Assembly: GCF_025643275.1 (NCBI RefSeq)
Contig: NZ_CP089977.1
Coordinates: 1,950,001 to 1,982,000, forward strand
DNA: 32,000 nucleotides
DNA from: Moraxella nasicaprae
Lineage (GTDB): Bacteria > Pseudomonadota > Gammaproteobacteria > Pseudomonadales > Moraxellaceae
Direction of reading: 5' to 3'
Shown one piece after another: positions 27,698 to 32,000 of the stretch; the stretch's first letter is position 1; each line of letters starts with the position of its first letter. The notes under the pieces were generated by a model, which was given only the letters and a program-made list of their open reading frames with translations, ran no database searches and was not told where the DNA came from. The translations under genes and the position numbers were made by a program.

Positions 27698-28858
27698 TTA
27701 AACCAAAATCAGCCAATTATCGTTGAGCCAAGTTGTCAGGCTGGTCAGGATTTCTTTGCCATCAATATCATCAATGGCAATCGCATCGCCTGAGGTTAGC
27801 GTTTGTAATAGTGATAATTCTTGCTCATTTAGACAGATATTTTCGCCATTGATGAACCACTGACCCTGATGATGTACAAATCGACAAGCAGGATTGAGCA
27901 TCAGGCATTCGCCATCGTTGAGTCGGTCGGACAGCTCATCATCACTAAGCTCATCTTCAAAAGATAGCAACTCATATTGGCGTTTGCTGACCAATTCGGC
28001 AACCGCCTGAGTGATGATGGCGTCTCCTTTGTCGCTATTTAGGGTAGCAAGCAGTTCGTTTTTGATGGCATTGATGCTTTCTTTGCTCAATTCAAAAGCG
28101 TCCGCTTGGTAACTTTGTGGCAAAGTCATCACGGTAAACAGCTCGCTTTGCGTGGTGGCGACATCAGCGATTTCATCAATGACTTGCACCAAATTTGGAC
28201 GGCGAAAACCAAATGAGAAGGTAAGACAGTCATCTTGGGCGATGCCGTGATGGCTTAGGCGTGGCGGTACATACAGCACATCGCCAGCTTCTAGCACTTC
28301 ATCAAAAATAATCTCGCCCATGTCATCTAGCAGGCGAATGGGCTGACCTGCCACAAATGGCGTGCCAGCATCGCACATTTTGCCCAGTTGCCAACGGCGA
28401 GACCCATAACCTTGTGCCAAAAAGACATCATATTCATCATAGTGAGCCCCGACCGAGCCGCCTTTTGGGGCGACAGAGACCATGATGTCGTCTTGTTGCC
28501 ATTTTGGAATAAAATCAAAGGCTTGCCACAGTTCGCCCAGCTCAGGCGACCATTGTTCCAGATTTTGCACCAAAATCGTCCATAGGGTTGGTGTACTATC
28601 GATGTCATCTTCACTCAGTGGCGATGATTTTAGCGACCACTGCATGGGATTATCGTCATGCTGACTGATGAGGCGTGCAGATACCCCATCTTCTACCGCC
28701 AAGCCCAGCACATCATCAGGCTCAAACATGCCCACCAAAGCAGGCAAGCCTTGTTTAATCAATAAAGGTTTTTTTTGCCAATATTCAGCAAGGAAAATCT
28801 CTGGCGTGATTCCCTCTGGCAGGCAAAATTGATTTAGTGTTTCGTGAAGGTTGTTCAT
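27698..28858 (-). CDS. roxA: JmjC/cupin ribosomal oxygenase, RoxA (YcfD)-like uL16 arginine hydroxylase
   Basis: FLAEYWQKKPLLIKQ start. The Fe(II) facial triad is in GGSVGAHYDEYDVFLAQGYG (HxD) and LYVPPRLSHHG (distal His). The length, with a C-terminal winged-helix-like part, fits YcfD. Confidence 0.75.
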   Translation of the reverse strand: MNNLHETLNQFCLPEGITPEIFLAEYWQKKPLLIKQGLPALVGMFEPDDVLGLAVEDGVSARLISQHDDNPMQWSLKSSPLSEDDIDSTPTLWTILVQNLEQWSPELGELWQAFDFIPKWQQDDIMVSVAPKGGSVGAHYDEYDVFLAQGYGSRRWQLGKMCDAGTPFVAGQPIRLLDDMGEIIFDEVLEAGDVLYVPPRLSHHGIAQDDCLTFSFGFRRPNLVQVIDEIADVATTQSELFTVMTLPQSYQADAFELSKESINAIKNELLATLNSDKGDAIITQAVAELVSKRQYELLSFEDELSDDELSDRLNDGECLMLNPACRFVHHQGQWFINGENICLNEQELSLLQTLTSGDAIAIDDIDGKEILTSLTTWLNDNWLILV

Positions 28859-29007
28859 AATTAACTCGTGATATTGGATTTGTGCCTAGTGTAACAAGTT
28901 TTTGGCATAAAACCAATAAAAAAGCTTAAAAGTCATGGTAAATTTAGCGTCTTTTCTTTATAATGGCGGGTATCTATCAATAATTTTTTTGACAATAAAG
29001 GTTGATT

Positions 29008-30108
29008 ATGTCTGAACATGACGATTTGGCAGAGCAAGAATTTGATTATGCAATGAGCGAAAATGGCGAGCTGACCCAAGCAGATATTGCAGCATTGTAT
29101 GCTGAGCTTGCTGAGGCAGAAAATGCCTTAGTTACCATTCGTGATTTTATCCGTTTTGTCGTAACAAAACTGCGTCAATATGATGTCGTGGTGGCACAAG
29201 GCACAACCGATGAATTTGCCGAAGCGGCGGCGATTGTACTGCATTCGTTATCATTGGAGTGGTCAGCTGATGAGCAGATTTTGGAATGTAAACTTACGCC
29301 CAGCGAAAAACAAGAAGTGCTGACCTTGTTGTCTGAACGCATCATTCAGCGTAAGCCGTTGTCTTATTTGATTAACTTAGCGTATTTTTGTAATTTGCCA
29401 TTTTATGTGGACGAGCGAGTTTTGATACCTCGTTCCCCGATTGCCGAGCTGATTAACCAAAAATTCTATCCATACTTTGATGTCGATGATGCCAAAAAAT
29501 CAGAATTTTTCCAACATGGATTGGCAGAAAAACAACTGTCCGCCCCAGAAAGGATTCTTGATTTGTGCACAGGTTCTGGCTGTATCGCCATCGCTCTTGC
29601 TAAGGCATTTCCTGACGCCAATGTGGACGGAGCAGATATTGATAAAGACGCCTTAGAAGTGGCGTGGACGAATGTTGAGCATCATGAGATTGAACATCAG
29701 GTCAATCTTTTAGAGAGTGATTTATTTGCCAAAATCCCTGCTGAAAATCAGTATGAACTCATCGTCACCAACCCGCCTTATGTGGATGCAGCTGTGATGG
29801 CAGAACTACCACCAGAGTTCTTGCACGAGCCAGAACACGCCTTGGCAGCAGGGCAAGATGGTTTGGATTTGGTGCATCAGATTTTGTACCATGCCCCTGA
29901 TTATCTAACCCCTGACGGCTTGCTTGTGTGCGAGGTGGGCGATAGTGAATGGGCGTTGCGTCAAGCCTATCCTGAGATTCAGTTTGAATGGCTCAACTTT
30001 GAAAAAGGCGGTAGTGGTATTTTTGCCATCGATTATGAAGAGTTGATGGAATATCGTGATGAATTTGCCCGCCAAGTAGAGCGAGTGACAGGTGTAGCAT
30101 TAGCGTGA
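29008..30108 (+). CDS. prmB: 50S ribosomal protein uL3 glutamine N5-methyltransferase PrmB, with an acidic N-terminal extension
   Basis: FYVDERVLIPRSPIAELI, DLCTGSGCIAIALA, IVTNPPYV, HEPEHALAAG and LVCEVG align with what I remember of E. coli PrmB. About 40 extra acidic residues sit at the N-terminus. Start at the ATG after AAAGG. Confidence 0.88.
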   Translation: MSEHDDLAEQEFDYAMSENGELTQADIAALYAELAEAENALVTIRDFIRFVVTKLRQYDVVVAQGTTDEFAEAAAIVLHSLSLEWSADEQILECKLTPSEKQEVLTLLSERIIQRKPLSYLINLAYFCNLPFYVDERVLIPRSPIAELINQKFYPYFDVDDAKKSEFFQHGLAEKQLSAPERILDLCTGSGCIAIALAKAFPDANVDGADIDKDALEVAWTNVEHHEIEHQVNLLESDLFAKIPAENQYELIVTNPPYVDAAVMAELPPEFLHEPEHALAAGQDGLDLVHQILYHAPDYLTPDGLLVCEVGDSEWALRQAYPEIQFEWLNFEKGGSGIFAIDYEELMEYRDEFARQVERVTGVALA

Positions 30109-30117
30109 GCAAATATG

Positions 30118-30153
30118 ACCGCCTACTGATGGTGAGTTTGGTAGGCGGTTTTG
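30118..30153 (+). terminator. Hairpin with a short T-tract after prmB
   Basis: ACCGCCTAC (30118-30126) pairs with GTAGGCGGT (30141-30149), followed by TTT. Confidence 0.6.
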
Positions 30154-30181
30154 GTCGTATTTGTGCGATTGGTTATTTGTG

Positions 30182-30955
30182 ATGAGTTCTTTGTCCAGAC
30201 ATCAACATTATCAGTTGTTAAATTTGCTTGGTTATGGATTGGCAAAATTTAATCGTGATTTTATCCAGCAGTTCAACTGCACCAATAAAGAGCAATTTTA
30301 TCAATATTTTGTAGATTTTGGCATTGTAGAGACCAAAAGTGTGGTTAAAAATCGCCAAGATTTATTTGATCCATATTTTGATAATGGTCGTCAAGGTTGG
30401 TGGCAGAAAAAAGAGGTCTATGAGCATAGAAAGATTTTAATTGATGGATTGTTTGGCAATGAAAATGTCATTGGCTATGCCAACATTATTAAACTGATTT
30501 TGCAGAATGAGTATCAGATTGATGATTTCTTGATTAAGGAAGATATAGAGCCAATCATACAATCCAAATTCAAAAAGATGCAAGAAACTGGTTTGGAAGC
30601 TGAACTTTATTTTATGCAGAATTATCAAAATATTGGGTTATTTAGTAATGGAGTTTTGCAAGACGCACGATTATTTGGCGATGGCTATGATTTTCAAATC
30701 AAAACAGGTTCAAATAATTATTTAGCGGAAGTCAAAGGCATTCGCCAAAATCAGGGTAAAATTCGCTTGACTGAAAATGAGTACATCAAAGCCTGCGAGT
30801 ATAAAAATGATTATATTCTGACTTTGGTGCTAAACTTAAATGAAATCCCAAGATTTTTGACGATTGAAAATCCAATTCATCAATTAAATTTTAAAGAAGT
30901 AATGTTGCAATCCAAACCGATTAAAGAATATCATTTGGAGCGTGAGATATGCTGA
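30182..30955 (+). CDS. Uncharacterised two-domain protein: unknown N-terminal domain plus DUF3883-like PD-(D/E)xK nuclease core
   Basis: The C-terminal half reads TGLEAELYF ... GDGYDFQI ... YLAEVKG ... LTENEYIKA ... YILTLV ... IENP. This is the E / D / E-x-K layout and flanking pattern I associate with DUF3883 restriction-endonuclease-fold domains. It is AT-rich relative to its neighbours. Start at ATG 30182; the ORF-track start is a TTG at 30161. No clear RBS. Confidence 0.7.
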   Translation: MSSLSRHQHYQLLNLLGYGLAKFNRDFIQQFNCTNKEQFYQYFVDFGIVETKSVVKNRQDLFDPYFDNGRQGWWQKKEVYEHRKILIDGLFGNENVIGYANIIKLILQNEYQIDDFLIKEDIEPIIQSKFKKMQETGLEAELYFMQNYQNIGLFSNGVLQDARLFGDGYDFQIKTGSNNYLAEVKGIRQNQGKIRLTENEYIKACEYKNDYILTLVLNLNEIPRFLTIENPIHQLNFKEVMLQSKPIKEYHLEREIC

Positions 30956-31197
30956 CTTTTGGGCAGAAAAAAGCATTATTCTTTAAATGCTTAAATGATA
31001 AAAATGGTTCTTATGGCGACATCATTCGTGATGAAGTGATGTTTTATTTTGATGATTTGGAAAATGATTTGGGCTTCTTGGATAAATATCAATCACAAGA
31101 AGAGATAGGTCATTTTACCAATATGTTGATTTCAAAAATCATCATGAATGAACATCAAGACAGTTTAGAAAATATCCTTATGTATTATTGTCAGTAA
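30949..31197 (+). CDS. 82-aa acidic hypothetical protein, translationally coupled to the nuclease-like gene
   Basis: The ATG lies 8 nt after GGAG and overlaps the upstream stop by 7 nt (ATGCTGA). By my count there are 14 D/E against 7 K/R. I see no recognisable motif. Confidence 0.55.
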   Translation: MLTFGQKKALFFKCLNDKNGSYGDIIRDEVMFYFDDLENDLGFLDKYQSQEEIGHFTNMLISKIIMNEHQDSLENILMYYCQ

Positions 31198-31505
31198 TTT
31201 TCCACCATGAAAATTCTTTCAAACAAAGATATGTCATTTGGGTTATCACACTAGATGGTCAAATTCTAACTTCAAAAGTTTGTCAAGAGAACGGCAAAGC
31301 CCTAATGACCAACCCAAATTCTGCATTGGCTGATTGGTTGTTACGCCAATGATTGAATTTAAAAGAAGGCGAATTGGCAGGTAATGAACGACTAGAATTG
31401 ATGGATTGTGATAGTGTCATTATTACCAAAATTGATGCAAATAAATATGTAATTAATAAGGCCAAATTTGGTAGTTATGAAACTTTTATTGAACAGTTAA
31501 AGTGA
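31170..31505 (+). pseudogene. Reading frame of about 110 codons interrupted by one in-frame TGA (31350-31352) and lacking an ATG start
   Basis: My translation is ...[99 protein letters not shown]. It looks protein-like on both sides of the stop. The only candidate start is TTG 31188. Confidence 0.4.
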
Positions 31506-31512
31506 GTATATT

Positions 31513-32000
31513 ATGTCAGGCAACACCATTGGAAAATTATTTACCGTAACCACCTGTGGCGAGTCGCACGGTGTGGGTTTGATGGCGATTGTGGACGGTG
31601 TACCGCCCAATTTGCCACTCACCGAAGAAGATTTGCAAATTGAATTGGATAGAAGAAAACCCGGCACTTCCAAATTTGCCACGCAACGAAAAGAAGATGA
31701 TAAGGTAGAAATCATCTCTGGCGTGTTTGAAGGCAAAACGACTGGCACACCCATTGGACTACTTATCCGTAACACCGACCAAAAGTCCAAAGATTATGGC
31801 AACATTGCAACAACCTTTCGCCCCAATCACGCCGATTATGCCTACACGATGAAATATGGCTTTCGGGATTATCGGGGCGGTGGGCGTTCGTCTGCACGAG
31901 AGACGGCAATGCGTGTGGCGGCAGGGGCGATTGCCAAAAAGTATCTTAAAGAACGCTTAGGCATTGTCATTCGTGGCGTTGTTACCCAAATTGGCACGGA
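31513..32000 (+). CDS. aroC: Chorismate synthase, 5' part; continues beyond the window end
   Basis: My translation is [51 protein letters not shown]...[24 protein letters not shown], the diagnostic AroC N-terminus. It is not in the ORF track because it is open-ended. Confidence 0.93.

Follow-up and report, generated by a model that had tools for sequence, protein, structure and literature searches.

A decayed restriction-modification islet at the prmB-aroC junction of Moraxella nasicaprae retains a putative DUF3883 defence nuclease and its small partner

Introduction

How did an AT-rich segment come to lie between the host genes prmB and aroC of Moraxella nasicaprae, and why has part of it been kept intact? 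We addressed this question in a 32,000-nucleotide (nt) stretch of contig NZ_CP089977.1 (assembly GCF_025643275.1, positions 1,950,001 to 1,982,000), hereafter the window, in which all positions given below are numbered. The insert comprises the 1,404 nt from the prmB stop codon (30106-30108) to the aroC ATG (31513). An original prediction, made from the letters of the sequence, had taken it for an orphan nuclease-based cassette of defence or toxin immunity without a known origin. Comparison with relatives instead identifies the insert as an eroded restriction-modification (RM) islet, the relic of an operon with the order M-X-Y-R, in which M is a C5-cytosine methyltransferase (PF00145), X and Y correspond to the first two open reading frames (ORFs) of the insert, and R is a Type II restriction endonuclease. 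The origin of the insert is ordinary, that of a decayed RM islet, and the X-Y pair retained in it belongs, as a variant not yet characterised, to a known class of nucleases.

Results

Ancestry of the insert

The third reading frame of the insert (R', 31198-31505, plus strand; REase_II) is a pseudogene of an NgoFVII-family restriction endonuclease that covers approximately residues 272-375 of 376. Two short ORFs, 31188-31352 and 31353-31505, form a single frame split by a TGA codon at 31350-31352, and three-frame translation placed a frameshift near 31245-31255. The in-frame TGA is also present in a metagenome-assembled genome (L041) that is 96.3% identical to the window over 7.8 kb and has the same insert and the same housekeeping neighbours. 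R' matched the REase_II model of PADLOC at positions 285-327 and 330-375 of 376 (E = 8e-11 and 2.5e-8) and Pfam RE_NgoFVII_C weakly; in tblastn searches with the intact R proteins of L060 and L063, it aligned over residues 297-375 with 54% identity (E = 1e-20). Members of this R family combine a PLD nuclease with a B3-like domain. Full-length relatives of 376 amino acids (aa) are abundant (3,832 matches) and are named 'NgoFVII family' or 'PLD domain-containing restriction endonuclease' by NCBI, while a PDB search with R of L063 gave no meaningful match. The original prediction had rightly called this ORF decayed and had missed that its ~100 residues are the C-terminus of a Type II enzyme of the NgoFVII family. 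By homology, the window is linked to NgoFVII-type RM systems through the R' remnant; it holds neither a methyltransferase gene nor an intact restriction gene of ~376 aa, and a tblastn search with the 410-aa M of L063 found nothing in the entire 32 kb.

The rest of the operon is seen in relatives. We drew X loci from NCBI, ENA, JGI and Logan, and the locus counts given here refer to 82 non-redundant X loci. In Bacteroidota and Moraxella, the order M, X, Y, R recurs, in decay states represented by L042-L049 in Moraxella and by L050-54, L060 and L151 in Bacteroidota. Metagenome contigs (L151) carry an intact 342-aa M, X, Y and a 64-aa R stump, and a Chryseobacterium (L060) carries an M cut at residue 267, X, Y and an intact 376-aa R. 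In a member of the Weeksellaceae (L050), M is cut at residue 192 and is followed by X, Y and an R interrupted near its 5' end. Among the Moraxella loci, that of Moraxella sp. K23 (L043) occupies the same prmB-aroC site as the window and consists of a 141-aa M fragment, X, Y and an R stump; M. nasovis (L042) has two M fragments, X and Y at a different site; and at a third chromosomal site (L046) an 89-aa M fragment precedes X, Y and an R stump. The K23 locus also has a 65-aa ORF with no Pfam match (L043:5263-5460) between prmB and the M fragment.

Of the 57 loci with enough upstream sequence, 19 have a fragment of M immediately next to X, and an R remnant lies 3' of X-Y in 24 of the 60 loci with enough downstream sequence. 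Where both flanks were available (48 loci), 15 loci bear traces of both M and R, six of R only, which is the state of the window, three of M only and 24 of neither. Placed in this series, the window represents a late decay state, with M lost, R reduced to a stump and X-Y preserved, and the insert as a whole is an eroded RM islet left by an M-X-Y-R operon. Ratios of nonsynonymous to synonymous substitution rates (dN/dS) on M and R were tried for dating the decay; synonymous sites were saturated and the values are only indicative.

The points at which M is truncated are scattered from residue 61 to residue 391, right at the X start. Its remnants are nearly always open frames that end 0-20 nt before the X ATG and show a low ratio of nonsynonymous to synonymous polymorphism (pN/pS); such open remnants lie upstream of X in L042-L050, L060, L083, L094, L096 and L105. 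These features suggest that M remnants may act as leader ORFs and that X is translationally coupled to the ORF upstream of it, although the truncation pattern could alternatively reflect repeated insertion.

The same RM family also occurs without X-Y: in L063 and L149, M and R form a simple pair whose genes overlap by 4 nt, with a Vsr gene upstream. In another locus, a different ORF of 107 aa lies between intact M and R genes and overlaps both (L147:4681-5004). The M/R junction of this RM family thus seems to accept varied small inserts. Two further observations concern the order of the genes and of their loss. An intact-looking R ORF of 351-402 aa stands beside a defective or absent M in four loci (L060, L070/L076, L075, L096), the reverse of the usual order of RM decay. 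At L113:3686-5412 the flanks are reversed, with an R N-terminus (residues 7-99), X, Y and an M C-terminus (residues 275-410), an arrangement that simple decay of M-X-Y-R does not explain.

Acquisition at the prmB-aroC junction

In most of 40 prmB-aroC loci from Moraxellaceae and relatives, the gap between the two genes is just 4-150 nt, and none of the 40 carries ORF1, ORF2 or ORF3. Given these empty sites, the insert is a genuine acquisition. Its G+C content is 32.5%, compared with 44.1% for the remaining window, and the four hand counts made earlier (32/100, 19/60, 50/100 and 35/60) were reproduced exactly. The view of the insert as a foreign AT-rich segment in a conserved junction therefore held, as did the account of its three ORFs, namely a nuclease with an N-domain of unknown type, a small acidic protein whose gene overlaps that of the nuclease, and a third frame in decay. 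Alignment of the junction across relatives, which had been proposed along with that view, yielded both empty sites and alternative cargo.

No integrase or transposase is present among the called genes around the insert in the 96%-identical relative L041. Searches at the insert found neither a tRNA nor an Rfam family, and repeats in its flanks, direct or inverted, did not exceed what chance would give; the absence of a tRNA and of convincing direct repeats had been noted before. The same note had considered the acquisition route unclear; the comparison with relatives points to a route, the landing of an RM islet in a junction that is variable among Moraxella.

ORF1 encodes a DUF3883 nuclease with a new helical N-domain

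ORF1, or X (30182-30955, plus strand), encodes 257 aa and matches Pfam PF13020 (NOV_C/DUF3883, E = 5.7e-16). The match places a NOV_C/DUF3883 domain of the PD-(D/E)xK class at residues 142-228, with 58.8 bits against a cut-off of 22.1. Its nuclease motif, D167/D170...E183-V-K185, is intact; D161, D167, D170, E183 and K185 are invariant in 28 homologues including the window sequence, and the window protein retains all residues that are invariant in the family. In an AlphaFold2 (AF2) model, the best Foldseek matches of the C-domain were the SPARDA nuclease subunit, SwaI and Hjc, all weak (E ~0.01-0.07). X is most likely an endonuclease, with DNA as its inferred substrate.

Residues 1-138 (30182-30595) form a six-helix N-domain with the motif KNRxDLFDPyFxNGRxGWWQK. 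A first full-length AF2 model from a shallow alignment rendered this domain poorly, with a predicted local distance difference test score (pLDDT) of 70; a model of the domain built from a diverse alignment is all-helical, with a pLDDT of 84.7 and a predicted template modelling score of 0.82. The N-domain had no Pfam match even at E 10, and Foldseek found no match for its model in PDB or BFVD. By these comparisons it would constitute a new, previously undescribed domain.

X has at least 1,970 homologues and is ~60-64% identical to those in Weeksellaceae, Flavobacteriaceae and other Bacteroidota. It is intact in nearly all loci examined. The dN/dS of X is 0.04-0.10 among Moraxella copies and up to 0.19 among Bacteroidota copies, and that of Y is 0.06-0.19, values that are indicative only, with synonymous sites near saturation; they point to purifying selection on both genes. 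The earlier statement that ORF1 and ORF2 match no named defence system was borne out by scans of PADLOC, NCBIfam and PHROGs. ORF1 produced only domain-level matches to the C-termini of TmtA in PADLOC-DB v2 (E = 4e-8 to 3e-3), no match in NCBIfam or PHROGs and no meaningful match when its profile was searched against PDB.

ORF2 and the small partners of X

ORF2, or Y (30949-31197, plus strand), encodes an acidic protein of 82 aa with an isoelectric point (pI) of 4.5 and a charge of -7. The two genes share 7 nt (ATGCTGA) at the ATG of ORF2 and the stop of ORF1, an overlap that is kept in nearly all relatives and by which X and Y appear to be translationally coupled. ORF2 had no match in Pfam (even at E 10), PADLOC, NCBIfam, PHROGs or PDB, and together with 20 relatives it gave nothing meaningful against PADLOC-DB v2. 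A word-indexed search with ORF2 returned only four close matches, and the family was rebuilt from locus DNA instead.

Among the 76 loci with sufficient downstream sequence, 49 carry the partner type found in the window (type A, acidic, 78-96 aa), 11 carry a zinc-ribbon-like protein of 61-73 aa with a CxxC...CxxC pattern (type B), four carry A and B in tandem and two carry a third type of 58-68 aa (type C), while 10 have no detectable partner 3' of X. All types are acidic (pI 4.0-5.7). Types A and B are unrelated to each other and are interleaved on the X tree. X proteins lacking a partner keep every invariant and catalytic residue (e.g., L065, L102, L143). Because X is intact in these roughly 10 loci, Y does not appear to be an obligatory antitoxin or antidote for X. 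The toxin-immunity part of the original prediction is weakened by these partner-less loci and by the interleaving of unrelated partner types.

In the tandem loci (L100:3659-4125, and also L124, L071 and L131), both partners lie behind X, first the acidic type A and then type B. In its complete form the module may comprise three genes, with one or the other partner lost by lineage.

Other contexts of X and of its N-domain

X is also found with other methylases. In L100 it stands beside an Eco47II-type system with a Vsr gene and a different C5 methylase, and in L144 it lies directly 3' of an intact C5 methylase and 5' of a DUF4420 gene. The methylases linked to X are mutually only 30-44% identical. 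X-Y is an autonomous and widespread two-gene module, found within or beside C5-methylase restriction loci of more than one kind and kept after these have decayed.

When the N-domain was searched exhaustively on its own, it was detected in fusions with TIR (P0368), with Mrr_N (P0341) and with another PD-(D/E)xK-like region (P0290, P0300); the domain also occurs by itself or as tandem copies, and P0289 is a further protein that contains it. In this comparison the motif of the ORF1 N-domain reads KNxRDxFDPxFxNGRxGWxQ. Modularity of this kind is typical of conflict systems, and the N-domain looks like an undescribed domain family of such systems.

Surroundings of the insert

The left flank is prmB (29008-30108, plus strand; Pfam MTS, E = 4e-17), the host gene for a ribosomal protein glutamine methyltransferase, which is 91% identical to that of M. 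pluranimalium. The right flank is aroC (31513-32000, plus strand; Pfam Chorismate_synt, E = 5e-68), the host gene for chorismate synthase, which runs off the window; the last ORF of the insert ends with a stop codon at 31503-31505, 7 nt 5' of it. Directly 3' of the prmB stop is a strong hairpin followed by a T-run (30109-30164, plus strand; arms 30118-30126 and 30141-30149), the only one of its kind in the window. Its folding free energy is -26.2 kcal/mol (z -5.95), and none of 200 shuffled sequences folded as well. It is probably the prmB terminator, and the hairpin named in the original prediction is confirmed by folding.

What lies between prmB and aroC varies within Moraxella, with variant states spread over L012:7060-7480, L019:5540-5955, L023:7075-7540, L016, L017, L021, L022 and L003-L009. 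Some species carry an uncharacterised 136-aa ORF there that has no Pfam match; a suspected SRA-like nature of this alternative cargo (L012/L019) was not confirmed by Pfam and was set aside. One species has ~470 nt of non-coding DNA at the junction. In some Moraxella, aroC is inverted and lies 1.5-4 kb off, and in others there is no aroC within 6 kb of prmB. When L020 was compared with window positions 27699-31996, the phylogenetic signal was incongruent across the junction: aroC is 99% identical in protein and 91.6% in DNA, prmB only 79% and 76%, and for prmB the nearer relative of the window is M. pluranimalium rather than L020. This incongruence suggests recombination breakpoints at or near the insert.

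Short palindromes are strongly avoided in window positions 1-32000. There are 0 sites for GCGC, 1 for CGCG, 1 for CCGG, 2 for ACGT, 5 for GATC and 9 for GGCC, where a Markov model predicts about 40-160 each. CCWGG is found at 11 sites versus about 57 expected; no avoidance is seen for GCSGC and GCWGC. The insert contains one of the five GATC sites (30368) and one of the nine GGCC sites (31460). Such avoidance suggests that the host has long been exposed to many Type II restriction systems. We also considered it as a clue to the specificity of X and dropped it in that role, as the avoided palindromes cannot be tied to X.

Discussion

Interpretation of the locus and rival explanations

The explanation that we favour for the whole locus, with a probability of roughly 55%, combines an eroded RM operon with X as a defence endonuclease harmless to its own host and Y as an accessory. 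An M-X-Y-R operon was acquired horizontally and landed between prmB and aroC. M has been deleted completely in this Moraxella lineage, and R was cut to its last ~100 codons, afterwards acquiring a frameshift and a nonsense codon. X would spare the host's own unmodified DNA and hence need no cognate methylase, and would give the host a second layer of defence behind restriction. Alternatively, its target might be invading DNA that is modified or carries some other mark, in the manner of a Type IV enzyme, or it might be set off by a cue that its N-domain senses. For Y, the part of an accessory or modulator would be likelier than that of an essential antidote. X is unlikely to be lethal to its host, because it persists without M, R or Y. 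A defence role of X-Y is plausible, given that DUF3883 occurs in modification-dependent enzymes, that the N-domain is reused with immune effector domains and that X survives the loss of M, R and Y.

Several observations weigh against this explanation. About half of the X-Y loci lie amid housekeeping genes and not in recognisable defence islands, and no PADLOC system contains X or Y. X homologues are absent from phages (0 matches) and nearly absent from plasmids (two distant matches). Pfam and fold searches of the N-domain revealed no recognisable reader of modified bases (SRA, PUA or DUF3427). The tight order of M and X would fit methylation-linked repair equally. Expression of X in the window is also uncertain, because no sigma-70-like promoter site is visible between the hairpin and ORF1, or anywhere in 30109-30181, and a strong hairpin lies upstream.

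A more specific version, which we hold only tentatively and consider rather improbable, makes X-Y a back-up or guard nuclease of C5-methylase RM operons. The helical N-domain would act as a sensor that fires the DUF3883 nuclease when restriction is bypassed or inhibited, or upon a phage cue, and the acidic and zinc-ribbon partners would tune the response. If this were true, X-Y would be a DNA-level counterpart of the logic of PrrC and EcoprrI, and its N-domain would represent a new sensor domain family for prokaryotic immunity.

Other explanations deal differently with the survival of X-Y after M and R had eroded. In a toxin-antitoxin or toxin-immunity pair, X would be a nuclease toxin and Y its acidic neutraliser, and addiction would explain why the pair outlives the RM genes. 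The 7-nt stop/start overlap couples the two genes in almost every locus, every Y type is acidic, and toxin-antitoxin systems, too, are known to exchange partners in the way observed here. A toxin should never occur without its antitoxin, however, and X is intact in about 10 of the 76 loci with Y deleted or truncated; for that reason the strict form of this idea was judged less likely. The interleaving of types A and B on the X tree, with four tandem loci, is unlike a co-evolving binding pair, and with a pI of 5.8 X is itself mildly acidic, which makes simple charge neutralisation not obvious. We regard the toxin-antitoxin explanation as unlikely, and slightly more so the proposal that X works as Vsr does, nicking T:G mismatches or other lesions that arise from deamination of 5-methylcytosine, which would account for its position directly 3' of C5 methylases of different specificities. 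Such a repair role would agree with the recurrence of M followed by X, overlapping or abutting, in at least three kinds of C5 systems, and with the upstream Vsr gene of the plain M-R loci L063 and L149, which the M-X-Y-R versions examined do not have. ORF1, on the other hand, has no homology to Pfam Vsr (PF03852), X is kept where the adjacent methylase has been deleted (the case of the window and of 24 of the 48 loci with both flanks), and the small Y partners and the TIR fusions of the N-domain fit poorly. True Vsr genes were detected in L063, L100 and L149, and Vsr and X occur together in L100 and L124, so X as a simple replacement for Vsr was judged less likely.

Two further explanations are less likely still. 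X could be the motor of a selfish, homing-like cassette that promotes insertion of X-Y at the M/R boundary, the M and R fragments being co-converted homology arms. The M/R junction of this RM family holds X-Y in some loci and lacks it in others, M is cut at many residues and always at the X start, L113 has its flanks in the opposite arrangement, and L147 holds another small gene in the same slot. This view has to contend with the lack of terminal repeats and of a recombinase and with X-Y beside unrelated systems and alone, and the strength of purifying selection on X over the long term, in loci where no target is left, speaks for a function at the level of the host; open M remnants that end at the X start fit selected translational coupling as well. 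A homing cassette seems to us improbable. Still less credible is X as an ordinary Type II enzyme cognate to M, tolerated in the window through another genomic methylase that protects its site. L151, with an intact M followed by X-Y and a dead R, does resemble a methylase-nuclease pair, X is highly conserved as sequence-specific enzymes are, and the extreme palindrome avoidance in the window would fit a host that lives with many restriction systems. Yet X is intact beside a deleted or truncated M in most loci and in two phyla, and its N-domain is nearly invariant while the linked methylases, at 30-44% identity, presumably differ in specificity.

Implications

Seen beside its relatives, an unexplained insert becomes a readable history, in which an RM islet entered a variable junction and was then eroded. 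For the host, no RM activity can be left at the locus, which lacks the methylase and retains only a disrupted stub of the restriction gene. The retained part belongs to a very common nuclease family whose curated annotation is only "DUF3883" and which shows 60% identity between Moraxella and Flavobacteriia. As a family that lies directly 3' of C5 methylases, outlives M and R, and has an N-domain combined with TIR and other effectors, X is a well-defined candidate for the experimental discovery of defence systems, and X-Y may serve as a test case for the evolution of accessory genes embedded in RM operons.

Comparison with known systems

Type II RM systems of the NgoFVII/BfiI type consist of a C5 methyltransferase and an enzyme with a C-terminal B3-like DNA-binding domain. 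The insert shares with them R', which is homologous to the enzyme C-terminus, and its relatives carry the matching C5 methylase upstream. Unlike these relatives, classical NgoFVII-type systems lack an X-Y pair in that position; a helicase-like subunit is present instead in NgoAVII and CglI (PMC4267653).

Restriction enzymes with proven modification dependence, which often adjoin C5-methylase RM systems, use DUF3883 for catalysis; among them are the Type IV enzymes of the groups YenY4I and McaZI (Lutz et al. 2019, PMC6765204). X shares with YenY4I and McaZI the C-terminal DUF3883 domain, a separate N-terminal putative specificity domain and, probably, the lack of need for a cognate methylase. 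They read modified bases through PUA-like or DUF3427 domains, whereas X has a six-helix domain without a Pfam or fold match, and X is accompanied by small partner genes, unlike YenY4I and McaZI.

The genetic coupling of an endonuclease to a C5 methylase also recalls Vsr. Vsr is a small restriction-fold endonuclease coupled to Dcm-type C5 methylases, with genes that often overlap. X differs from it in its extra N-domain and its partner genes.

The PrrC anticodon nuclease is embedded in the EcoprrI type I RM locus (PMC1484252, PMC3458546), and prrC is always linked to an RM locus that silences PrrC (PMC3458546). The likeness lies in a nuclease gene placed between modification and restriction genes as a latent second line, and it is an architectural analogy only: PrrC consists of an ABC-ATPase and a tRNA nuclease, ORF1 has no such Pfam domains, and there is no relation in sequence or fold. 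Unlike PrrC, X commonly survives alone.

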